From: Escherichia coli
GTDB lineage: Bacteria > Pseudomonadota > Gammaproteobacteria > Enterobacterales > Enterobacteriaceae
DNA length: 13,117 bases
NCBI RefSeq assembly: GCF_003334815.1
Contig: NZ_QOWO01000058.1
Strand: one strand, 5' to 3'
In this document: positions 504 through 11,107 of the stretch, piece by piece
Position numbering within the stretch: the stretch's first letter is position 1
Layout: each line of letters opens with the position of its first letter
Made by a program: the position numbers and the translations under genes
Notes under the pieces: generated by a model
Told to the model about the DNA's origin: nothing
Databases searched by the model: none
What the model saw: only the letters and a program-made list of their open reading frames with translations

Positions 504-3203
504 GTGAATGCAGTCATTCCGAAAAAGAGAAGGGACGGCAAGTCTTCGTTCGAAGACCTGGTGTCCTACGTCTCTGTCCGGGATGACATGACCGATGAGG
601 AACTGAATTTATCTTCTTCTTCGCAGGCTGAACAACCGCACCGGAGCCGCTTCAGTCGTCTTGTTGATTATGCAACACGCCTTCGAAATGAATCATTCGT
701 GGCACTGGTTGATGTCATGAAGGACGGCTGCGAATGGGTTAACTTTTATGGTGTGACCTGTTTTCACAACTGTACATCTCTTGAAACTGCCGCTGCAGAT
801 ATGGAGTACATTGCACAGCAGGCACACTATGCGAAAGATAATACTGATCCTGTTTTTCACTACATTCTTTCCTGGCAGGCCCATGAAAGCCCGCGTCCGG
901 AACAGATTTATGACAGTGTACGCCATACCCTGAAATCTCTCGGGCTGGGTGAACATCAGTATGTCTCTGCCGTGCATACCGATACTGATAACCTGCATGT
1001 TCACGTTGCGGTCAACCGGGTGCATCCGGTTACAGGTTATCTCAATTGCCTTTCATGGAGTCAGGAAAAACTCAGCCGTGCCTGCCGTGAGCTTGAACTG
1101 AAGCATGGTTTTGCTCCGGATAACGGTTGCTGGGTCCATGCGCCGGGAAATCGTATCGTTCGCAAAACTGCCGTTGAACGTGATCGCCAGAACGCTTGGA
1201 CACGCGGAAAAAAACAAACTTTTCGCGAGTATGTTGCGCAGACAGCGGTAGCTGGTTTACGCAGTGAACCTGTACATGACTGGTTATCCCTGCATCGTCG
1301 TCTTGCTGAAGATGGTCTGTACCTGTCTCAGATGGACGGAAAATTTCTGGTGATGGATGGCTGGGATCGCAACAGGGAAGGTGTACAGCTTGACTCGTTT
1401 GGCCCTTCCTGGTGTGCAGAAAAACTCATGAAAAAAATGGGTGACTACACGCCAGTACCAAAAGACATTTTCAGCCAGGTGGAAGCACCAGGACGCTATA
1501 ATCCGGACTTCATTGCAGCTGATGTTCGCCCGGAAAAAATCGCTGAAACAGAAAGTCTGCAGCAGTATGCCTGTCGTCATCTTGGAGAACGTCTGCCGGA
1601 AATGGCACGGGAAGGACGGCTGGAAAACTGCCAGGCTATTCACCGCACACTGGCTGAAGCGGGATTATGGATGCGTGTTCAGCATGGTCACCTGGTTATC
1701 TGTGACGGTTATGATCATAACCAGACTCCCGTTCGTGCTGACAGCGTATGGTCACTGCTGACGCTCGACAATGTGAATCAACTCGATGGTGGCTGGCAGC
1801 CTGTACCAACAGATATTTTCCGCCAGGTTACGCCAACAGAACGCTTCCGTGGTCGTCGTATGGAGAGCTGTCCTGCGACCGATAAAGAATGGCACCGTAT
1901 GCGTACAGGTACGGGGCCGCAGGGGGCTATCAAACGCGAACTGTTTTCTGACAAAGAAAGTCTGTGGGGATACAGCATCAGCCATTGTAGCCCTCAGATT
2001 GAAGAAATGATCACACAGGGTGAGTTTACCTGGCAGCGTTGTCATGAGCTGTTTGCACAACAGGGACTGATGCTACAGAAACAACATCACGGGCTTGTTG
2101 TCGTTGATGCCTTTAATCATGAGCAAACGCCGGTGAAAGCCAGCAGCATTCATCCTGATCTGACACTGGGGCGTGCGGAGCCACAGGCCGGACCTTTTGT
2201 GAGTGCCCCAGCAGATTTGTTTGACAGGGTGCAACCTGAAAATCGCTATAACCCGGAGCTGGCTGTCAGTGACAGGTACGGGGTCAGCAGTAAACGTGAT
2301 CCAATGCTGCGCCGGCAGCGACGTGAAGCCAGGGCTGAGGCCCGTGCTGACCTGCGTGCCCGCTATCTGGCATGGCGTGAACAATGGCGTAAACCAGATC
2401 TGCGTTATGGGGAACGTTGTCGGGAAATTCATCAGGCATGCCGTCTGCGGAAGTCACACATTCGTGCGCAGTACGATGATCCGGCATTACGTAAGCTGCA
2501 TTATCACATTGCAGAAGTTCAGCGAATGCAGGCATTGATCAGGCTGAAAGAAGACATCAGGGATGAGCGACAGAAACTTATTGCTGACGGGAAGTGGTAT
2601 CCACCCTCTTACCGTCAGTGGGTCGAAATTCAGGCTGCTCAGGGAGACAGGGCTGCTGTATCGCAGCTGAGAGGCTGGGATTATCGCGATCGCCGTAAAG
2701 ACAAGTCACGCACAACGACGACAGACCGCTGTGTCGTGCTTTGTGAACCGGGCGGAACGCCGGTATACGGTAATACCGGTGATCTCGAGGCCCGTCTGCA
2801 GAAGAACGGGAGTGTTCGTTTCCGTGACCGTCGGACGGGAGAGTTGGTCTGTACGGATTATGGTGACAGGGTTGTTTTCCGTAATCACCATGACCGCAAT
2901 GCGCTGGCAGATAAACTAGATTTGATTGCACCTGTATTGTTTGAGCGTGATCCCAGAATGGGCTTTGAACCAGAAGGAAACGATGGACAGTTTAATCAGG
3001 TCTTTGCTGAAATGGTGGCATGGTACAATGTGACGGGATTCTCTGAACATGGAAATTACGTTATTACTCGACCGGACGTAGATCAGCACAGGGAAGTGAG
3101 TGAGCGGGGCTATCGCAATTACATGGATAGTAACACTTACAGAGATGGAGCTCAGCCAGTTCAGGATAGTGAGAATCGCTGGGAACCTCCAACACCGGTG
3201 TAA
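504..3203 (+). CDS. nikB: Conjugative relaxase NikB (MOB-P family), 899 aa
   Basis: GTG start at 504 with GAGGA (492-496) upstream; stop TAA 3201-3203. Contains the MOB-P histidine-triad motif HTDTDNLHVHVAVNRVHP (compare RP4 TraI HxDxxxxHxH) and an N-terminal Tyr-containing region (DLVSYVSV). The 899-aa length agrees with R64 NikB. Confidence 0.93.
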   Translation: MNAVIPKKRRDGKSSFEDLVSYVSVRDDMTDEELNLSSSSQAEQPHRSRFSRLVDYATRLRNESFVALVDVMKDGCEWVNFYGVTCFHNCTSLETAAADMEYIAQQAHYAKDNTDPVFHYILSWQAHESPRPEQIYDSVRHTLKSLGLGEHQYVSAVHTDTDNLHVHVAVNRVHPVTGYLNCLSWSQEKLSRACRELELKHGFAPDNGCWVHAPGNRIVRKTAVERDRQNAWTRGKKQTFREYVAQTAVAGLRSEPVHDWLSLHRRLAEDGLYLSQMDGKFLVMDGWDRNREGVQLDSFGPSWCAEKLMKKMGDYTPVPKDIFSQVEAPGRYNPDFIAADVRPEKIAETESLQQYACRHLGERLPEMAREGRLENCQAIHRTLAEAGLWMRVQHGHLVICDGYDHNQTPVRADSVWSLLTLDNVNQLDGGWQPVPTDIFRQVTPTERFRGRRMESCPATDKEWHRMRTGTGPQGAIKRELFSDKESLWGYSISHCSPQIEEMITQGEFTWQRCHELFAQQGLMLQKQHHGLVVVDAFNHEQTPVKASSIHPDLTLGRAEPQAGPFVSAPADLFDRVQPENRYNPELAVSDRYGVSSKRDPMLRRQRREARAEARADLRARYLAWREQWRKPDLRYGERCREIHQACRLRKSHIRAQYDDPALRKLHYHIAEVQRMQALIRLKEDIRDERQKLIADGKWYPPSYRQWVEIQAAQGDRAAVSQLRGWDYRDRRKDKSRTTTTDRCVVLCEPGGTPVYGNTGDLEARLQKNGSVRFRDRRTGELVCTDYGDRVVFRNHHDRNALADKLDLIAPVLFERDPRMGFEPEGNDGQFNQVFAEMVAWYNVTGFSEHGNYVITRPDVDQHREVSERGYRNYMDSNTYRDGAQPVQDSENRWEPPTPV

Positions 3204-3801: not shown

Positions 3802-3850
3802 TGTTTTTTAAATAAACTGGTTTTTTGACGTTCTTATCTCTGTTCAGAAA

Positions 3851-6040
3851 TCACCTCCTGTTGGGATGATTATTTATATTATGAGTTCTGACAGGTCGAT
3901 ATTTTATTTCCGAAAAGTGACCATCTCTCAGATACAGAACTCTGTCTGCGGATGCTATTGTTTCTGGTCGATGAGCTATTAACAGAACAGGAATTCCGAG
4001 TTGGCGTAATGTCTGGCTTATTTCTATTTCACTTTCCACATCAAGATGACTGGTTGCTTCGTCCAGTAATAATAGACTAGGTTTTTTATACAGTGCTCTT
4101 GCCAGTAGAATACGTTGCTTCTGACCACCGGAAAGTCCCCCCCCGGTTTCTCCAAGCAATGTTTGATAGCCCATTGGCATTGCCATAATATCACTGTCTA
4201 TAAGTGCCAGACTTGCGCATTTACGCATGTGTTCATGATCTCTAATTTCGCTAAAAAACATTATATTATCAGCTATAGAACCTTTGAAAAGATAGTCATC
4301 TTGCAATACAGTGCCAATTCGTTGACGAACCTGAAAATAATCAGAATGTGTATGTGGTATGCCAAATGCATTAATTCTTCCTTCACTGGGTGTATGAATC
4401 CCAAGAATAAGCTTTACCAATGTTGATTTGCCACATCCTGATTTACCTGTTATTGCTAATATTTCTCCAGGAAAGAGCATTAGTGACGCGTTATCCAATA
4501 TGGGTTTATCTGCGCCCTTATGGCTAAATGTTATTTTTTCGATAAGTAATGGTGGATGGGTATTATCATATTTATGTTCTCTGTACTGGCTTGCAGATAT
4601 TGTTTCATTATGGTTTGCCCAATGGTGCTGATTCTGGTGACCTTCCTGTGGTGTTAGCACAATATCGGCAAGTCTCTCGTTATAAACATCAAGCATGCGC
4701 CAGGAAAAAAAGTTATCAGTCAGATTGCTTATACTGGATGAAAAACGCATCTGATAGGATAAGTAAGCAACCAACATACCCACGGTAAATGTCCCATCCA
4801 GCACTTCTACTGCACCCTGCCACAAAATAATGGCTGAAACTACACTTTCCGTCAGTGTATGCGTCAGCTCATAGCTCATTTGTAAACGATTCTGGCGTAG
4901 CTGTGTGTTTCTGCGGGTAACGTTGAGGTTCAGCCAGGCCGCTTCTCTGTGAATAGTTACACCGTTGATTCTCAGACTCTGAATGCCGTTAAGGGTTTCG
5001 AGAAAATGCCCCGACTCCTTAGTTCCTGCATCCCAGACATCTTCAACAGATTGCCGTAAAGCCGGATACCACAATGCTCTCAGTGCGCCATATATAATAG
5101 CTGCAATTACTGCGATTAATGTCATTCCTGGACTATACAACAGCATCATGCAAAGAGCAGTCACAATAAGTAGCATATCCAGAATGCCTTCAAGAACCTG
5201 CGTTGTCAGCGCCTGCTGGATTATATCTACTGCTTCAAAACGGGCATTAATACTTCCTTTACTTCGGGCATCGAACCATGCAAGAGGGAGTCTTACAAGA
5301 TGATGGAAAACTCTGGCAGTCCATTGCATGTTAAAATTGACTGATAAACTGATCGTTGCCCATTGTCGTGCCAGGGAGAGTAATAATTGTATGAGTGATA
5401 ACAACAGTAGTGCCACTATAATGACATACAACAGACTTCTGTCTGCTGCAACCAGAACTTCATCAATTACCAGTTGATTAAGAAGTGGACCACCTAAAGC
5501 CAGAATCTCAAGGGCCAGAGCAAAAATAATAATTTTTGTCATTGATGCTAAAAGCCCCGGGGTTTTCCCTGTCAGTTGGCGCAGGTGGATTTTTTTTCTC
5601 TCGTTCCGGGGGGTGAAATCACTGGCTGGAGTTAATTCCAGTGCCACTCCTGTAAAATGCTTACCTGCGTCCAACAGACTTATTGTAATTTTTCCTCTGT
5701 CCGGATCATGGATGTATAACCGGTTTCCCCGAACTTTATGGAGAACGACGAAATGGTTCATATCCCAGTGCAGAATAGATGGAAGATTAAGACACCTCAG
5801 ATCTTCGGGTTCCAGACGAACTGCACGTGATGATAAATGGATGGACGCTGCACATTCGATCAACCTTTGTAGCGTCATTCCCTGAATACCTATATTGAAA
5901 CGTTCCCGTAATGTCGATAAATCTGTTTTCAGTCCATGCCAGCAGGCAATCATAGCCAGACACGCCAGACCGCATTCAGCTGATTCGGTTTGACGGATAA
6001 CGGGTAGTTGTTTCCTTACTTTCCAGTTTATTGATTCCAT
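3851..6040 (-). CDS. mcpB: Microcin ABC exporter with N-terminal C39 double-glycine peptidase domain (CvaB-like)
   Basis: C39 peptidase motifs (QTESAECGLACLAM catalytic Cys, HFVVLH His), a transmembrane domain, Walker A GKSGCGKST, ABC signature LSGGQKQR, Walker B LLLLDEATS, H-loop IAHR. Start chosen at the ATG 6040-6038, which overlaps the upstream gene stop as TAATG and has a GGA-containing SD (AAAGGAAA). The ORF-track start at 6088 adds 16 aa and lacks an SD. N-terminus aligns with CvaB (PVIxQTExAECGLACLAM). Confidence 0.92.
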   Translation of the reverse strand: MESINWKVRKQLPVIRQTESAECGLACLAMIACWHGLKTDLSTLRERFNIGIQGMTLQRLIECAASIHLSSRAVRLEPEDLRCLNLPSILHWDMNHFVVLHKVRGNRLYIHDPDRGKITISLLDAGKHFTGVALELTPASDFTPRNERKKIHLRQLTGKTPGLLASMTKIIIFALALEILALGGPLLNQLVIDEVLVAADRSLLYVIIVALLLLSLIQLLLSLARQWATISLSVNFNMQWTARVFHHLVRLPLAWFDARSKGSINARFEAVDIIQQALTTQVLEGILDMLLIVTALCMMLLYSPGMTLIAVIAAIIYGALRALWYPALRQSVEDVWDAGTKESGHFLETLNGIQSLRINGVTIHREAAWLNLNVTRRNTQLRQNRLQMSYELTHTLTESVVSAIILWQGAVEVLDGTFTVGMLVAYLSYQMRFSSSISNLTDNFFSWRMLDVYNERLADIVLTPQEGHQNQHHWANHNETISASQYREHKYDNTHPPLLIEKITFSHKGADKPILDNASLMLFPGEILAITGKSGCGKSTLVKLILGIHTPSEGRINAFGIPHTHSDYFQVRQRIGTVLQDDYLFKGSIADNIMFFSEIRDHEHMRKCASLALIDSDIMAMPMGYQTLLGETGGGLSGGQKQRILLARALYKKPSLLLLDEATSHLDVESEIEISQTLRQLGIPVLLIAHRPETIASADRVLYLRDGHFSEIKYRPVRTHNINNHPNRR

Positions 6041-7293
6041 TACAGATTTCCTTTCATGCTCCATAGTGGCTCTGTCAGCCATTCCCATAAATGACGAGTA
6101 TCAAGGTTGACGTCTCCTTCCAGAGTCATGCCTGGTCTTAGCGGTTCTTTTTTTCCGTATGCAAATATAAATGTATTTTCAGGCTCAACAATAACGCGAT
6201 AATGCCCTTCGTTTTCTTTCCATGTGACGGGTGAAACTGGTAATAAGTCGGAAGGAGCCAGAGTCGTATGACTGATTTCACGAATTGTGCCGTACTGGAT
6301 ACCAAATTTCTGATAAGGGAAGGCCGAAAACTTCAGAGATACTCGTTGACCTGGTCGGATAAAACCGGCTTTCTGGCTGGTAGCATAAAGCTCAATTTGT
6401 AAATGAGCATTATCGGGAATGAGAGTCATGACCGGTTCTGATGCTTTCACAGACTGCCCCTGTTTGATCAGTACAGCAGCAATAGTCCCGGATACTGGAG
6501 CCCTCAGTGTAAATTTTTCTTGTCCGGCCAGTTCATCCTGTTGTTGTTTTAGCACCTGCAATTGTCTGTCGAGTTCTGCTTTACGGCTTTTCCCCTGAAC
6601 AATAAGATGATTTAGTTCATCTTTGGCTGTGTCCATTGCAGTATGCAACTGGAGAAGCCCCTGACGCTGATCTTCAACGTTTTGTTGAGCGGCAGAAACA
6701 TCAATTTGTTTCTGTTGGAATTCGATATCTGACACATAATGCGTACCAGCCAATTTTTTATAGCGTTCCATGACGGATATAGCCAGTTCTGCCTGACGTT
6801 CAGCAAGCTGAAGTCTTTGTTCTGCACTTCTTATTTGTGGCTCAAGTGATACCATCCTTTGCCGTATGGCTTCCTGTTGTTGACTATTATCTCGCGACTC
6901 AAAGGATTGCTGGGAGGCCAGCATGATAGACTGGGTTTTCAGGGAAATACTCATCGTTGCTAATGTGCCAGTTCCGTTACCGTTATAATGTTCTCCACTT
7001 ATATGATAGAGTTGTGTCCCTGCAGTTACGTGTTCTCCTTCGGATACAGTCAGTTGTGTTACATATCCTGCATATTGAGGAATTATTTTTACCAGTCCTG
7101 ATGAGGGCATGACGATACCTGTAAGATGCGCTTTCCTTGTATAGCTACCGTAATAGATGAATACAGTCAGACTTAACATAATGAATAATGTAACTGTTGC
7201 ACATACGGATAGGCTAAATGATGTTGGTAAAATAATGTCACCATATTCAGTGTCATTATGATGTTCTATTGCTTCACTTCTGAATATATTCAT
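6040..7293 (-). CDS. mcpD: HlyD/CvaA-family membrane fusion protein for microcin export
   Basis: N-terminus MNIFRSEAIEHH aligns with CvaA MFRQDALENRK, followed by a single TM helix and a long coiled-coil Q/E-rich periplasmic region. Start taken as ATG 7293-7291; the ORF-track start at 7329 is a TTG with no SD. Stop TAA 6042-6040 overlaps the mcpB start. Confidence 0.88.
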   Translation of the reverse strand: MNIFRSEAIEHHNDTEYGDIILPTSFSLSVCATVTLFIMLSLTVFIYYGSYTRKAHLTGIVMPSSGLVKIIPQYAGYVTQLTVSEGEHVTAGTQLYHISGEHYNGNGTGTLATMSISLKTQSIMLASQQSFESRDNSQQQEAIRQRMVSLEPQIRSAEQRLQLAERQAELAISVMERYKKLAGTHYVSDIEFQQKQIDVSAAQQNVEDQRQGLLQLHTAMDTAKDELNHLIVQGKSRKAELDRQLQVLKQQQDELAGQEKFTLRAPVSGTIAAVLIKQGQSVKASEPVMTLIPDNAHLQIELYATSQKAGFIRPGQRVSLKFSAFPYQKFGIQYGTIREISHTTLAPSDLLPVSPVTWKENEGHYRVIVEPENTFIFAYGKKEPLRPGMTLEGDVNLDTRHLWEWLTEPLWSMKGNL

Positions 7294-7395
7294 TCTTTTT
7301 AATACAATAACTAACCTTTCTGTCAACAAGAGGGGTTGGTTGAATAATATTGATATTTGATATACATCTTACCTGTGTGATGTTAAAGTTTTATA

Positions 7396-8031
7396 CTATA
7401 ATATATTTAACAATATAACAAAGCCGTTTATCCCCGCATGTAACAGCATTGGATAGAAAATCCCCTTACTGCAAATTCTTATATTCAACAATAACATTGA
7501 CATAATAAACAGAATAATTTGATCAGCTACATTATAATACTGCGGATGCATCAGGCAGAAAAATAAAGATGTACACACGCAGGGGGTGAATAATTCTTTT
7601 TTATAAGTCGCACATAGAAGGCCGAATAAACATGTTCGGTAAACAATTTCTTCATAATACGGAACTATCAGGACCAGTATAAATATTTCAATCCAATTAA
7701 GTGAAGTTGATTCACTATTGTTTAAATTGTCTCTATAAGCAAAAATAAGCAGTTGCATGAGAGCAATTACAGCAAATGATATTACTAATAGCTTTAATGT
7801 TTTCGCATTTGTCTTTATGGTGATTTTACAACCTGGTATTCTTCTTAAGTAAAAAATATAAAATGAAGTTGATATTAAAATTTCAGTAATAAAGACAAAG
7901 GAAAATGCCAGGTCCAAACCAATATATTGTATGGTGAATGCTGGTGTGAATATCACAACTGTTGATATAACAACAAGTAGAAGAAACGCTATCGCATTAT
8001 CTTTGCTGTATTTATATATGTTATCATTCAT
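7396..8031 (-). CDS. mcpA: CPBP-family (CAAX protease / Abi-like) intramembrane metalloprotease homologue, 211 aa
   Basis: Polytopic membrane protein with the three CPBP motifs: EExxxR (EEIVYR), FxxxH (FFCLMH) and HxxxN (HAGIN). Very AT-rich. ATG at 8031-8029 lies 4 nt after the mcpI stop (TAG 8038-8036). Confidence 0.85.
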   Translation of the reverse strand: MNDNIYKYSKDNAIAFLLLVVISTVVIFTPAFTIQYIGLDLAFSFVFITEILISTSFYIFYLRRIPGCKITIKTNAKTLKLLVISFAVIALMQLLIFAYRDNLNNSESTSLNWIEIFILVLIVPYYEEIVYRTCLFGLLCATYKKELFTPCVCTSLFFCLMHPQYYNVADQIILFIMSMLLLNIRICSKGIFYPMLLHAGINGFVILLNIL

Positions 8032-8035
8032 AATG

Positions 8036-8236
8036 CTATTTCGCGGAGATTGTTCTTATTTTTTCTATGATATAGTCCATGAATCTTGCTGTGGAAAAAA
8101 GAGTGATCAGCATGACTACAATCTTTGAAAACTCGGAAGGGAGTGAAAACCAGTATAAATCAATAACAGAGGAGCCACTCAATAGCGCAAATCCCAGTAA
8201 CAAACCACATATAAAGGAAAGTAATTTAATAAACAT
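8036..8236 (-). CDS. mcpI: Small two-helix membrane protein, probable microcin immunity protein (66 aa)
   Basis: Small hydrophobic ORF immediately downstream of the precursor gene, the usual position of class II microcin immunity genes. Start chosen at ATG 8236-8234 (MFIKLL...) because GGAGG lies 8-9 nt upstream; the ORF-track start at 8251 would add 5 aa (MEGAT). Confidence 0.7.
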   Translation of the reverse strand: MFIKLLSFICGLLLGFALLSGSSVIDLYWFSLPSEFSKIVVMLITLFSTARFMDYIIEKIRTISAK

Positions 8237-8260
8237 AGTAGCGCCCTCCATTATATCTAT

Positions 8261-8623
8261 TTATCGGTTACATGTTCCGCCAACATTATTACCTGAACAA
8301 CTACTGGAACTTCCTCTGTTACCACATCCATTTCCACTACCATGATCTGAGAGACATTGACCAACAACGGCTCCACCAATGGTACCTCTTGCCATTCCTA
8401 TGGGACCTCCTTTGATCGCACCACCAATCATTCCACTAAATACAGCGTTAGCGCATTTTACAGTGCTTGGATCACTATAAATATGAGTTGGTGCGTTTCG
8501 ACCCAGTGAGTTACGAGCCCCACTGGAACGCTCATTACGGGGGCCACCTTCAAAGTTGCTGTTTGCGTTTCCTCCGCTGACAAGCGTTATCTCATCTAAA
8601 GTTAATTCTCTTATACCTGCCAT
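8261..8623 (-). CDS. mcpM: Class II microcin precursor with double-glycine leader (120 aa), matches microcin PDI McpM from memory
   Basis: N-terminal leader MAGIRELTLDEITLVSGG has the ExLxxxExxxVSGG double-glycine pattern ending at G17-G18, with a second GA site at G35/A36. Gly-rich mature region with GxxxG-like repeats (GGAIKGGPIGMARGTIGGAVVG) and Cys at 57, 90, 100, 109, 118. SD GGGGAAA upstream of ATG 8623-8621. First gene of an operon ending in a C39-ABC exporter. Confidence 0.88.
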   Translation of the reverse strand: MAGIRELTLDEITLVSGGNANSNFEGGPRNERSSGARNSLGRNAPTHIYSDPSTVKCANAVFSGMIGGAIKGGPIGMARGTIGGAVVGQCLSDHGSGNGCGNRGSSSSCSGNNVGGTCNR

Positions 8624-8780
8624 ATCATATTTCCCCTATTGGTTGTTTGTTATTTTGTGCGTTCAAGATAGCCAATAACAAAAATGTAATGAAAGTGAAA
8701 TTGTGTGATTAAATGTAAATATGTGAAAATATTTGTATGTTCTTGAGGTTGTGTGATTACAAAAATATCATCGTGTGAAG
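8624..8780 (-). promoter_or_regulatory. AT-rich promoter/operator region of the microcin operon
   Basis: About 160 bp AT-rich leader between the trbC terminator and the mcpM start. Read on the - strand it contains five TTYAC-type half-sites phased at about 10 bp (TTTCAC, TTTACA, aaTCAC, TTTCAC, aTTACA; + coordinates about 8685-8728). On the + strand TTGTGTGATTA occurs twice (8701-8711, 8749-8759). Exact -35/-10 not assigned. Confidence 0.5.
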
Positions 8781-8808
8781 ATATAAAACCGTGCCAGGGC
8801 TGGCACGG
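8781..8808 (-). terminator. Rho-independent terminator downstream of trbC
   Basis: Perfect 9-bp stem CCGTGCCAG (8789-8797) / CTGGCACGG (8800-8808) with a 2-nt loop; on the - strand it is followed by TTTTATAT (8788-8781). Lies 8 nt after the trbC stop codon (8816-8818). Confidence 0.7.
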
Positions 8809-8815
8809 CCTCTGT

Positions 8816-11107
8816 TCAGTACATTCCGTCCCAGTCCGGACGGTTGGTTTTTTTATGATGAAACCCGTTTACAGGACGCCCTGTCAGGTGGTTATTGTCC
8901 TGTGGAAGCGTTAACAGGTTTATACCTGCTCTTTCTGCTCTCACTGATATCTGATTTTCCTCTTTTGTTTCAGGTAGTTCTGGTCTGTTCAGCGTGATAT
9001 AGCGAATTCGTCGCTCTTCCCGTGTGGTCGTTTTAAGCGTATTCACCGCTGTTTCCCACAAGGCACTTTCACGTGCGTTGATATCCGTGTCGTACTCTTC
9101 CAGCATTGCCATAGCCGCCTGACGTCCTGCAATGCGTTGCTGGAATGTATCCACGATCGTGTGCGGCTCTGTGCGAATTTTTCGTCTTTTTCTGGAGGGT
9201 TTTGCAGTCAGGACGCCAATGATGGCACTGACATTTTCCGGTGACGGTATTCGACGTTGAGTAGTACGGGGAACAAGACGGCGGAGACGGTCCAGGCGTG
9301 GCGCATCCACGCTGATATACCTGTTTATAACAACGGGATCGCTGCTGCAGCTTTTCTCATTGTCAGGGATGAAGAATGATGCTGATGGTACGGTTTCTCC
9401 CCGGAAAATAGAAAAGAACTCGCCAGGATGAAGTTCAATCAACTCCTGAACATCTATCTTACTTTCCATCAGGATGCTGATTTGTGGGCTGTCAATCCAT
9501 GATTCACCAAATATGCCGTCCTGACGCTGCAGGTTGTTCATCCTCGCCCTGGCTTCTTCACCGGCGGCGCTTTTCAGCGTTCTGGCCGTACTGCCCTCGC
9601 TGACAATCCTGCCGGCAAATTTTGTCCCCGTGTTCTGCATCAGTGTTGCAGTATTCGTGGCTGTTGTCTGTCCTTCTATACGTTCCTGGTCCTGTGCCAT
9701 CAAAATCAGAGCAAAATCCAGTGAACGCACCTGAGTGGCTTCCACAGCAATACGGTCTGTATAGTATGCCCCCACTTCATCAAGGAAACACAGATAAGGG
9801 AAACGCCCCTTATATTTTTTGACTTCCAGTGCATCGGAATCAGTTCCTTCGAGGCGGTAGCCCAAATCACGGGCGAGAATCATACTTTTCTGGGTGATAA
9901 ACATTCGTCCCAGAGCAGACGTTGTATGCGCTGATGTATCCAGAGCGGGGATCATTACCATCAGAATCCTGTCGCTGTGAATGCTGTCACGGATATCGAT
10001 ATCACCGGAATCTTCAGCAAAAATATCCCCGAATGCTTCCGTGAATGTGCTGAAAGTTTCAGAAAACTGCCCGGAGAGATAAGCATGTTGTTTTCTGGGT
10101 TCTTCCGTCCAGGCTGATGGTGTCCTGACCAGCGACAGGTCGAAACCGGGAACGTCCTGAAGGTAGTTACGTAACGGTGCGATAGCTTCTTCCGGCCACT
10201 GATCATCGAGGCCACGACAGTAAAGTTTGGCCATCCCTTCGAGAGTCATATGTTCACGGAGCATCTGCAGCGACATTGTTTTGCCTTCGCGCACACACCA
10301 GAATTTAGTACCAAATACCAGTGCCTTGTTCATGGCAATGGCCCGGGACTGCCACTCGCCCCCCTGGACGTTCTGGGGCAACATTGACTGCATTGTCTCC
10401 GCTGTGAATGCCTCAGTGCTGTAACAGAAGGGATTCCAGGTATTTGACTGAGGTCGTGTTTTTTCACCACTCAGAATGATTTCACTGCGGGATTTTCCTC
10501 CGTTCATGAAGTTGATGACTTCCACATCGTCTTCACGGCCAAAGCGTCTGGCCAGATACCAGATCGTTCTTGCCGTATCATTCTGTGCCTTGCCATCGAC
10601 AAGGGTGAATCCTCTTGCCCAGCAAAGCGGGTTAATCGCCCAGGCAAAGATGGTTTCCGTTTTACCACCACCGGTGGTGGCGAAAAACATTATATGGCGG
10701 GTCAGATCGTCCATACTCAGCCACAACTCCCGACCTATATCCCTGACGCGTTGATAACCAACATAAAATATGCCGCTGGCCGGTGACTCCAGGATGACCT
10801 CATACTGAAACAGAGTTGGCCAGAAGCTGAAAAGGCTTCTTTTAATCATTCTGTCCTGTGACGGGTCAGCACATTCCAGCGTCATGGGCATACGAAGAGG
10901 GCAGCGCCATCGCTGCAGACTAAATACCAGCATCGTTATCAGTGTGAACAACAGACATGCCGGTAATGCAAGTGGCCAGATAAAACTGGCCACAAGACTT
11001 GCCACCAGGCAAAAGCCATAGATATTGAGACTCTGGAGTGCATTCCAGACAGGATTTCCCCAGGCTGTACGGTGTAAAAGCTCGGGGTTAACGCGATGTT
11101 CACTCAT
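8816..11107 (-). CDS. trbC: Type IVB coupling-protein-like ATPase TrbC (DotL/IcmO homologue), 763 aa
   Basis: N-terminal TM helices followed by an ATPase domain with P-loop FFATTGGGKTE. ATG 11107-11105 overlaps the trbB 3' end by 8 nt. Position after trbB and size agree with R64 TrbC. Confidence 0.88.
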   Translation of the reverse strand: MSEHRVNPELLHRTAWGNPVWNALQSLNIYGFCLVASLVASFIWPLALPACLLFTLITMLVFSLQRWRCPLRMPMTLECADPSQDRMIKRSLFSFWPTLFQYEVILESPASGIFYVGYQRVRDIGRELWLSMDDLTRHIMFFATTGGGKTETIFAWAINPLCWARGFTLVDGKAQNDTARTIWYLARRFGREDDVEVINFMNGGKSRSEIILSGEKTRPQSNTWNPFCYSTEAFTAETMQSMLPQNVQGGEWQSRAIAMNKALVFGTKFWCVREGKTMSLQMLREHMTLEGMAKLYCRGLDDQWPEEAIAPLRNYLQDVPGFDLSLVRTPSAWTEEPRKQHAYLSGQFSETFSTFTEAFGDIFAEDSGDIDIRDSIHSDRILMVMIPALDTSAHTTSALGRMFITQKSMILARDLGYRLEGTDSDALEVKKYKGRFPYLCFLDEVGAYYTDRIAVEATQVRSLDFALILMAQDQERIEGQTTATNTATLMQNTGTKFAGRIVSEGSTARTLKSAAGEEARARMNNLQRQDGIFGESWIDSPQISILMESKIDVQELIELHPGEFFSIFRGETVPSASFFIPDNEKSCSSDPVVINRYISVDAPRLDRLRRLVPRTTQRRIPSPENVSAIIGVLTAKPSRKRRKIRTEPHTIVDTFQQRIAGRQAAMAMLEEYDTDINARESALWETAVNTLKTTTREERRIRYITLNRPELPETKEENQISVRAERAGINLLTLPQDNNHLTGRPVNGFHHKKTNRPDWDGMY

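Follow-up and report, generated by a model that had tools for sequence, protein, structure and literature searches.

A phased array of OmpR-type half-sites ahead of mcpM, the microcin PDI precursor gene

The regulation of microcin PDI was described previously in E. coli-25, where deletion of envZ or ompR abolishes the microcin PDI inhibition phenotype and complementation restores it (Zhao et al. 2017, Sci Rep 7:42529, PMC5311971). In the same work, mcpM transcription drops in an envZ mutant, an EnvZ H243A variant is inactive, and low salt raises both microcin PDI activity and mcpM mRNA. OmpR gel-shifts a -10/-210 promoter fragment only if it is phosphorylated, and the shift is abolished by D55A or by phosphatase treatment. 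Truncation gel shifts showed that -102..-81 is essential (site B1), with auxiliary regions at -61..-81 and -102..-134 (PMC5311971). The OmpR mapping consists of gel shifts of truncated fragments only, and the “reduced binding” seen for some of them is qualitative and, according to the authors, possibly a staining artefact. A second fragment from the cluster, PmicD, gave no OmpR binding, and the expression pattern of mcpB differs, so an additional regulator was postulated (PMC5311971). A further report found that mcpM declines in stationary phase though salt stays low (PMC5743794). The OmpR identity and the regulatory logic of the mcpM array were thus already published in 2017. Here, we place the published fragments at base resolution on a second promoter allele, carried by a 13,117-nt stretch of Escherichia coli DNA (contig NZ_QOWO01000058.1; hereafter, the window), and compare the array with those of homologous microcins.

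The mcpM promoter region and its plasmid context

The window is part of an IncI1-type conjugative plasmid and holds nikB, a low-GC insert with the microcin PDI cluster, and trbC. The features that matter here are as follows.

504-3203, plus strand: nikB, plasmid backbone
6088-3851, minus strand: mcpB
about 7329-6040, minus strand: mcpD
8031-7396, minus strand: mcpA
8251-8036, minus strand: mcpI
8261-8623, minus strand: mcpM, the regulated gene, a 120-aa microcin PDI precursor with a double-glycine leader (from translation and homologue alignment)
8637-8631, minus strand: mcpM Shine-Dalgarno sequence, AGGGGAA
8789-8808, minus strand: hairpin, CCGTGCCAGCCCTGGCACGG then UUUUAUAU, inverted repeat I2 (fold energy -19.1 kcal/mol, z = -3.45)
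11107-8816: trbC, plasmid backbone

The mcpM product was identified as the precursor of microcin PDI because the published primers match exactly. The sole DNA upstream of mcpM is a 192-bp gap at 8624-8815. GC content is 0.30-0.40 across 7200-8800, compared with about 0.50 in the backbone. Homology of the backbone to island-free IncI1-type plasmids (roughly 1,400 without the cluster) restarts at 8802, and the mcpM promoter region is therefore part of the microcin insert rather than of the backbone. In these cluster-free plasmids, only a different hairpin separates nikB from trbC. Judging from its fold, the hairpin at 8789-8808 looks like a terminator downstream of trbC that may insulate the mcpM promoter from read-through. 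An Rfam scan of the entire window returned no RNA family, with no hint of a known sRNA in the region. Five plasmids match the window solely from 8706 on, a position within the proximal copy of an 11-mer repeat described below. We rejected 8706 as a recombination site, as these plasmids have simply lost 3822-8705, with 11 nt of filler in its place and no repeat at the far end of the deletion.

A phased half-site array at the published OmpR fragments

In the mcpM sense, the intergenic region contains five half-sites of the form T(T/C)AC in the same orientation, which we call HS0 to HS4.

8681-8729, minus strand (mcpM sense): the whole array, HS0-HS4
8729-8720, minus strand: HS0, TTTTCACATA
8719-8710, minus strand: HS1, TTTACATTTA
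8709-8700, minus strand: HS2, ATCACACAAT
8699-8690, minus strand: HS3, TTCACTTTCA
8690-8681, minus strand: HS4, ATTACATTTT
8700-8719, minus strand: best 20-bp OmpR-type site, TTTACATTTA-ATCACACAAT (HS1 and HS2), the top intergenic PWM match
8680-8699, minus strand: second 20-bp unit, HS3 and HS4, corresponding to the published auxiliary region -61..-81; the homologues keep both half-sites

The five T[TC]AC cores begin at 8726, 8718, 8708, 8698, and 8689, or -103, -95, -85, -75, and -66 from the mcpM ATG. Their AC dinucleotides lie at -101, -93, -83, -73, and -64 from the ATG, in steps of 8, 10, 10, and 9 bp. A first-pass annotation of the sequence had pointed to a T-AC array reading in the mcpM direction with its AC dinucleotides phased at 8-10 bp, and all of its coordinates are right. 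Its TTYAC pattern needs relaxing, as its own brackets conceded: a strict TT[TC]AC fits three of the five cores, whereas the looser T[TC]AC fits all five.

The phasing of the half-sites is non-random. When the 192-bp intergenic region was shuffled with its dinucleotides preserved, 0/5000 shuffles gave a five-member chain on one strand with 8-11 bp spacing (shuffle mean 1.24), although the P-value is post hoc, the motif having been taken from the very sequence under test. The chain of five is also unique in the 13-kb window, where the runner-up on either strand has two members, and T[TC]AC occurs in the intergenic region seven times in the sense direction and once in the antisense direction. Independent replication is provided by the homologues, as the phased chain is present in seven of the eight homologue lineages.

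We also scored the region with a PWM built from six ompF and ompC sites (F1-F3 and C1-C3), which were first confirmed in MG1655 DNA, using window-wide and local backgrounds. The best intergenic match is exactly 8719-8700, which ranks fifth of about 26,000 window positions, and the top three intergenic matches all lie in phase inside the array. However, the score of the best match is within the range of shuffled AT-rich sequence (P = 0.23), and equally good matches are found within the AT-rich mcp genes. We therefore rejected the porin-site PWM as a discriminating test. The comparison with shuffled AT-rich sequence that the first-pass annotation had proposed is thus passed by the phasing of the array (0/5000) and not by the porin-site score. 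At the level of single bases, the first 9 bases of HS1 equal the start of ompC C1 (TTTACATTT), and the core 20-bp site shares 14/20 bases with ompF F1.

Next to these scores stands the published binding evidence, which we placed on the window via the supplementary primer table (position -n = 8623+n). The fragment-end primers inside the array fit the window with 0-1 errors, and the outer and allele-variable primers with at most 3. Primer Pmic_-102_F matches the reverse complement of 8704-8725 without error. The mapped segments and fragments are listed here.

8704-8725, minus strand: essential segment -102..-81 (CACATATTTACATTTAATCACA), which holds the core site B1, from primer mapping
8684-8704, minus strand: auxiliary region -61..-81
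8725-8757, minus strand: auxiliary region -102..-134, which includes HS0 and most of the distal 11-mer
8658-8833, 8684-8833, 8704-8833, 8634-8757, 8634-8740, 8634-8725, and 8684-8733 (fragment 10): OmpR-binding fragments
8722-8833 (fragment 4), 8739-8833, and 8658-8708 (fragment 9): non-binding fragments

All of the binding fragments include 8709-8721 and all of the non-binding fragments lack it, so the indispensable information lies in 8709-8721, which is the TTTACATTTA half-site. The HS3-HS4 unit does not bind alone (fragment 9), and its removal qualitatively lowers binding (PMC5311971). Binding is weaker for fragments 7 and 8, from which -102..-134 is wholly or partly missing, and fragments 4 and 5, which retain this region and lack the core, do not bind at all (PMC5311971). 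The published phospho-OmpR gel shift therefore maps exactly to the array, as the first-pass annotation anticipated in proposing tandem winged-helix (OmpR) sites. The segment that it had marked, 8685-8760, corresponds to -62..-137 and is nearly identical to the published binding region of -61..-134. Its suggestion of osmolarity-regulated expression agrees with the induction of mcpM at low osmolarity and the need for EnvZ/OmpR, and the report of OmpR/EnvZ control of microcin PDI to which it referred does exist (PMC5311971).

Taken together, it is very likely that this segment serves the mcpM promoter as its binding array for phospho-OmpR. In the mechanism that we infer, OmpR-P monomers would line up head-to-tail along the tandem half-sites, each 10 bp long with a TTTAC(A) or T(C/T)AC(A) pattern. 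Binding would be nucleated at the core 20-bp site (8719-8700), and the flanking half-sites, at 8699-8681 downstream and at 8729-8720 (and beyond) upstream, would reinforce occupancy cooperatively while not binding alone. Bound OmpR-P would then activate a weak sigma-70 promoter immediately downstream of, or partly overlapping, the array, and this promoter would drive mcpM-mcpI-mcpA at low osmolarity. The reduced expression at high salt would likely come from weaker sites that are filled at high OmpR-P.

A periodicity of 10 bp could also arise from phased T-tracts that give intrinsic curvature, and/or from H-NS nucleation in an AT-rich island, with OmpR acting mainly as a counter-silencer. The cluster is indeed AT-rich over 7200-8800 relative to the backbone, and a T-run ends every half-site. 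We nevertheless consider this reading quite improbable, as conservation is strongest in the T[TC]AC cores and not just in the T-runs, the half-sites show a strand asymmetry of 7 to 1, and OmpR-P binding is specific and dependent on 8709-8721.

Repeats, promoter candidates, and other regulators

The 11-mer TTGTGTGATTA occurs exactly twice upstream of mcpM, 48 bp apart, and the shorter TGTGTGAT is found at 7374-7381, with an additional minus-strand copy at 2010-2017 inside nikB. The exact 11-mer repeat is marginal against shuffles (P about 0.025) and extends to 14/16 bases.

8701-8711, plus strand: proximal TTGTGTGATTA, the reverse complement of TAATCACACAA, which is HS2 of the core OmpR site
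8749-8759, plus strand: distal TTGTGTGATTA, an exact copy specific to the window's allele

Homologues read TTTACATAA or ATTACAAAT at the proximal position. At the distal position, other alleles read TTGTGTAATTA via a C/T SNP at 8755, which turns TCAC into TTAC and keeps the T[TC]AC core. The window's allele belongs to 24/65 plasmids at an identity of at least 99%, and the class at 95-97% is the commoner one. All six sampled plasmids of this commoner class (L004 to L009) read TAATTACACAA, and the E. coli-25 primers read ATTACACAAC at the distal 11-mer, in agreement with the TAATTACACAA class. Neither 11-mer copy is conserved as such among the homologues examined. The first-pass annotation had listed both copies and the third TGTGTGAT at the correct positions, but its view of them as a distinct repeated motif does not hold, as the proximal copy is HS2 and the distal copy is exact in one allele only. 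TTGTGTGATTA is a by-product, namely, a T(C/T)ACA half-site seen from the other strand, whose exact duplication is confined to the window's allele. We also rejected a single duplication of the 11-mer and neighbouring 16-mers, as the two repeat pairs lie in opposite order.

If TTGTGTGATTA were instead the operator of an unnamed factor, its copies at 8701, 8749, and 7374 could tie the mcpM promoter to the promoter between mcpA and mcpD. The cluster has just one other intergenic gap and the third TGTGTGAT does lie in it, the P of about 0.025 and the extension to 14/16 bases are in keeping with a separate element, and the differing mcpB expression pattern led to the postulate of a further regulator. 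Such an operator is very unlikely, however. The distal copy is inexact (TAATTACACAA) in E. coli-25 and in 6/6 plasmids sampled from the commoner class, and both the 11-mer and the distal region are unconserved in homologues. Furthermore, the CAAX-protease and HlyD genes of homologue clusters lie 2-83 bp apart, which leaves hardly any gap, and the third copy is merely an 8-mer with a fourth within nikB on the other strand. As a further OmpR element, the third copy is not supported either, since 7374-7381 sits within the published PmicD fragment, which we mapped to 7314-7456 and which showed no OmpR binding.

Three promoter candidates lie in or downstream of the array.

8665-8670, minus strand: -10 candidate A, TATCTT, the sole -10-like hexamer in the same alignment column (148) in 11/11 sequences
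8652-8681, minus strand: candidate B, TTGTTA (8681-8676), an 18-bp spacer, and CAAAAT (8657-8652)
8727-8700, minus strand: candidate C, TTCACA-16-CACAAT, inside the array (consensus promoter scan, 9/12 matches)

On the strength of its conservation, we infer that candidate A may be the mcpM -10 element; homologues read TGn[A/G]ATAGT here, an extended -10. With candidate A as the -10, the array would span about -61..-23 and HS3 and HS4 would cover the -35 region, unlike in ompF and ompC. Porin-type OmpR sites abut the -35 element from upstream, at about -100 to -40. Candidate B would put HS1-HS4 at about -74..-36, which is the ompF/ompC geometry, and is not positionally conserved among homologues. 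Candidate C is the top-scoring promoter model in all three microcin PDI alleles; we did not adopt it as the promoter, as it is unconserved in homologues. The highest-scoring model in microcin S-type homologues is TTTACA-17-TACATT, formed by HS2 and HS4, and the same model is weak in the window.

These overlaps raise the possibility that the array is partly the core promoter itself, with half-sites that resemble -35 hexamers (TTGACA vs TTCACA/TTTACA) and -10 hexamers and with OmpR overlapping RNA polymerase. The rank of candidate C in the window's allele, that of the HS2/HS4 model in microcin S-type homologues, and the conserved -10 candidate at 8670-8665, which puts HS3/HS4 over the -35 region, would all be consistent with it. 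We regard it as unlikely, because candidate C is unconserved and the model favoured in homologues scores poorly in the window. In addition, expression is ompR-dependent with OmpR-P binding exactly at the array, and an activator bound there would occlude a promoter at 8727-8700.

Other regulators of the OmpR/PhoB family could use the same repeats. The CpxR box consensus is GTAAA-N5-GTAAA (PMC9600279), and the only match in the window with 1 mismatch is at 8715-8729; homologues L011, L013, L014, and L016 have perfect CpxR boxes at HS1-HS2. The RstA box, TACATNTNGTTACA (PMC4117788 and others), is matched with 2 mismatches at 8717-8704 (-94) and with 1 mismatch in six lineages. From these matches, the array may be a docking site common to several regulators. 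OmpR would then be modulated or opposed there by CpxR, which responds to envelope stress, by RstA of the PhoQP-RstBA pathway (acid or low Mg), or by both, and such an input could account for the drop of mcpM in stationary phase despite constant low salt (PMC5743794). We hold it to be possible but doubtful: deletion of ompR or envZ alone abolishes the phenotype, the CpxR-like match of the window is displaced 10 bp from the conserved core, and the short direct-repeat consensuses of OmpR-type regulators overlap, such that the matches may merely reflect the OmpR site. The best matches to PhoP and PhoB boxes carry 3-4 and 5-7 mismatches, respectively.

CRP, which the first-pass annotation had suggested as a control, would place the microcin under catabolite control if the TGTGA pentamers of the region were CRP half-sites. 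Four TGTGA do occur on the plus strand within 8704-8778. All four have the same orientation with no TCACA partner at 6-bp spacing, the best TGTGA-N6-TCACA matches in the region carry 3 mismatches, and the palindrome count across the window equals chance (64 observed vs 63 expected). A palindrome scan found no credible CRP site in the region. CRP control of mcpM therefore has next to no likelihood and is effectively refuted by the sequence.

Conservation among homologues and comparison with known systems

Homologues were collected by tblastn with McpM, and a peptide-pattern scan of species genomes (100,044 genomes) added just 3 loci. A tblastn search with the Enterobacter homologue returned 4 records only, probably owing to low-complexity filtering. 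Protein identity to McpM is 79% for microcin S on pSYM1, 65% for an E. coli IncF plasmid, 69% for Klebsiella, and 45% and 40% for Enterobacter.

The upstream DNA of the homologues is unalignable with the window beyond about -97. From about -97 to the ATG, a common block reads TTTACATTT-nn-TTACA-nnnn-TT(C/T)ACT-nnnnn-CA(T/C)ACAT, followed by TGn(A/G)ATAGT, GCAC, and the Shine-Dalgarno sequence. Averaged over pairs of the eight lineages, identity jumps at HS1: it is 0.22-0.34 upstream, 0.60-0.75 for each of HS1-HS4, and 0.82 in the hexamer aligned with TATCTT. Where the phased chain is present, it has exact 10-bp steps and starts at -94/-95 from the ATG, each with P <= 0.01. The insertion within the array of lineage L017 is 10 bp long, and the phase of the array is therefore preserved. 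HS0 and the auxiliary region -102..-134 are not conserved in the homologues, and only microcin PDI has TTTCAC (8728-8723) and the distal 11-mer. What is new is that microcin S and the Klebsiella and Enterobacter homologues, even at 40% protein identity, keep four half-sites and a -10-like hexamer at an unchanged distance from the ATG.

We tentatively suggest, while regarding it as the less probable outcome, that the box of four half-sites and the conserved -10-like element form a control module ancestral to the entire family of microcin S and microcin PDI, found on plasmids and transposons of Escherichia, Klebsiella, and Enterobacter. Microcin S and its relatives would then be OmpR-controlled weapons of low osmolarity, and the module would combine activation by OmpR with modulation by CpxR and/or RstA at the shared repeats. 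HS3-HS4 would serve as the shut-off at high OmpR-P, replacing the distal F4 looping site of ompF. Our literature search found no description of microcin S regulation, and the 2012 paper could only speculate (pH or nutrients).

For the window itself, these results are of limited importance, because the EnvZ/OmpR and low-osmolarity logic was published in 2017 and was essentially re-derived from sequence by the first-pass annotation. What is added is a base-resolution map of the published gel-shift fragments on a second, common promoter allele, the demonstration that the TGTGTGATTA repeat is no separate signal, and comparative evidence of the same phased box ahead of microcin S and of uncharacterised Klebsiella and Enterobacter homologues. 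The presence of this box leads to the prediction that production of these homologues is low-salt and ompR-dependent. If so, this may explain why microcin S activity was not demonstrable on standard agar, and it may help anyone expressing microcin S or PDI-type microcins in probiotic strains. What remains of interest is the conservation across the family, the promoter geometry, and a possible multi-regulator input.

The closest described system is the E. coli-25 promoter with its OmpR sites B1, B2, and B3 (PMC5311971), which is the same locus and differs by 0-1 bases in the core fragments. Relative to E. coli-25, the window's allele has C rather than T at 8755, changes at about -121/-119 and in the T-tract around -108, and one changed base near -15. 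That paper reports neither half-site phasing statistics nor homologue conservation.

The array also resembles ompF F1-F2-F3 and ompC C1-C2-C3, which are contiguous 20-bp sites, each of two 10-bp half-sites in the same orientation with a conserved AC, and the regulation of mcpM at low osmolarity resembles that of ompF. Unlike ompF and ompC, mcpM has four conserved half-sites (two dimers) as opposed to six, these may overlap the -35 region, and mcpM is not known to have a distal site like F4. The overall PWM similarity of the mcpM array to the ompF and ompC sites is statistically indistinguishable from an AT-rich background. CpxR and RstA boxes are likewise direct repeats of the same TTTAC/TACA core with 10-11 bp spacing.

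Among microcins, microcin B17 is also plasmid-borne and requires OmpR for transcription (cited in PMC5311971 and PMC3316575), but it belongs to an unrelated cluster, is a class I microcin, and is under growth-phase rather than osmolarity control. The nearest relatives outside microcin PDI are microcin S (mcsS, pSYM1) and the Klebsiella and Enterobacter loci. These differ from the window in that HS2 is a better TTTACA and in that they lie downstream of a Tn3-family resolvase gene rather than beside trbC. They share with it a homologous precursor and, at equal distances, the array, the TGnAATAGT element, and the Shine-Dalgarno sequence.

Spacing and allelic variation around the half-site array

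Window about 8729-8734 (-106 to -111 from the mcpM ATG): T-tract of variable length, just 5' of the array

We compared the phased OmpR half-sites with those of related loci and observed two kinds of spacing change. The T-tract reads AAATATTTTC in the window and AAATTTTTTC in another microcin PDI plasmid (L004), with one additional T in L005 and two in L006, and these length changes move the distal region by 1-2 bp relative to the core sites. In the homologue of an Enterobacteriaceae metagenome-assembled genome (L017, upstream of position 1201), half-sites 2 and 3 are set 10 bp further apart by an insertion, AAAAGAAATC, which adds one helical turn to the spacing and leaves every core in phase.

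The alleles also differ in sequence. Codons 1-6 of mcpM (8606-8623) encode MAGIRE in the window, whereas the other alleles differ at codon 3, with GG changed to AA or A, and read MANIRE or something close to it. The published experiments were done with the E. coli-25 allele, and its primers point to several promoter positions at which that allele and the window disagree.

An inverted repeat at the -10 candidates

8646-8654 and 8674-8682: inverted repeat with perfectly matching 9-bp arms, TTTGTTATT / AATAACAAA, 19 bp apart

The arms of this repeat flank -10 candidate A (TATCTT) on both sides and overlap both hexamers of promoter candidate B, namely the -35 (8681-8676) and the -10 (8657-8652). 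Possible roles for the repeat are an operator or a weak hairpin in the 5' UTR; the homologues show no evident counterpart.

Cluster deletion and the hairpin beside trbC

L010 2989-3001: deletion junction, with an 11-nt filler, GAGCCGCTTAC, replacing window 3822-8705
8789-8808: strong GC hairpin (-19.1 kcal/mol) followed by UUUUAUAU, 3' of trbC

Five plasmids, e.g., NZ_AP022179.1, have lost the whole microcin cluster (window 3822-8705). In these the breakpoint lies within the proximal 11-mer (8701-8711), and what is left of the mcpM promoter beside trbC is its distal half (8706-8801). The opposite end of the deletion has no repeat matching this 11-mer. A terminator scan of the minus strand did not flag the hairpin at 8789-8808. 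In IncI1 plasmids that lack the island, its place between the convergent genes nikB and trbC is taken by a different one.

Genomic setting of the homologues

L011, L012, L014 and L015, positions about 700-1500: microcin S-type homologues, with a Tn3-family resolvase gene directly 5' and a Tn3 transposase adjoining

As they adjoin Tn3 resolvase and transposase genes, these four microcin S-type homologues are transposon cargo. A further microcin S-like gene (79% identity) lies on a 1.6-kb contig, SAAB01000146.1, labelled as a "Clostridia bacterium" metagenome-assembled genome; the contig is almost certainly a mis-binned fragment of an enterobacterial plasmid. In the IncF plasmids L008 and L009, similarity to the window stops at 8782. 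Unlike the microcin S-type loci, microcin PDI is carried either by IncF plasmids or by IncI1/IncK plasmids, where nikB and trbC flank it.
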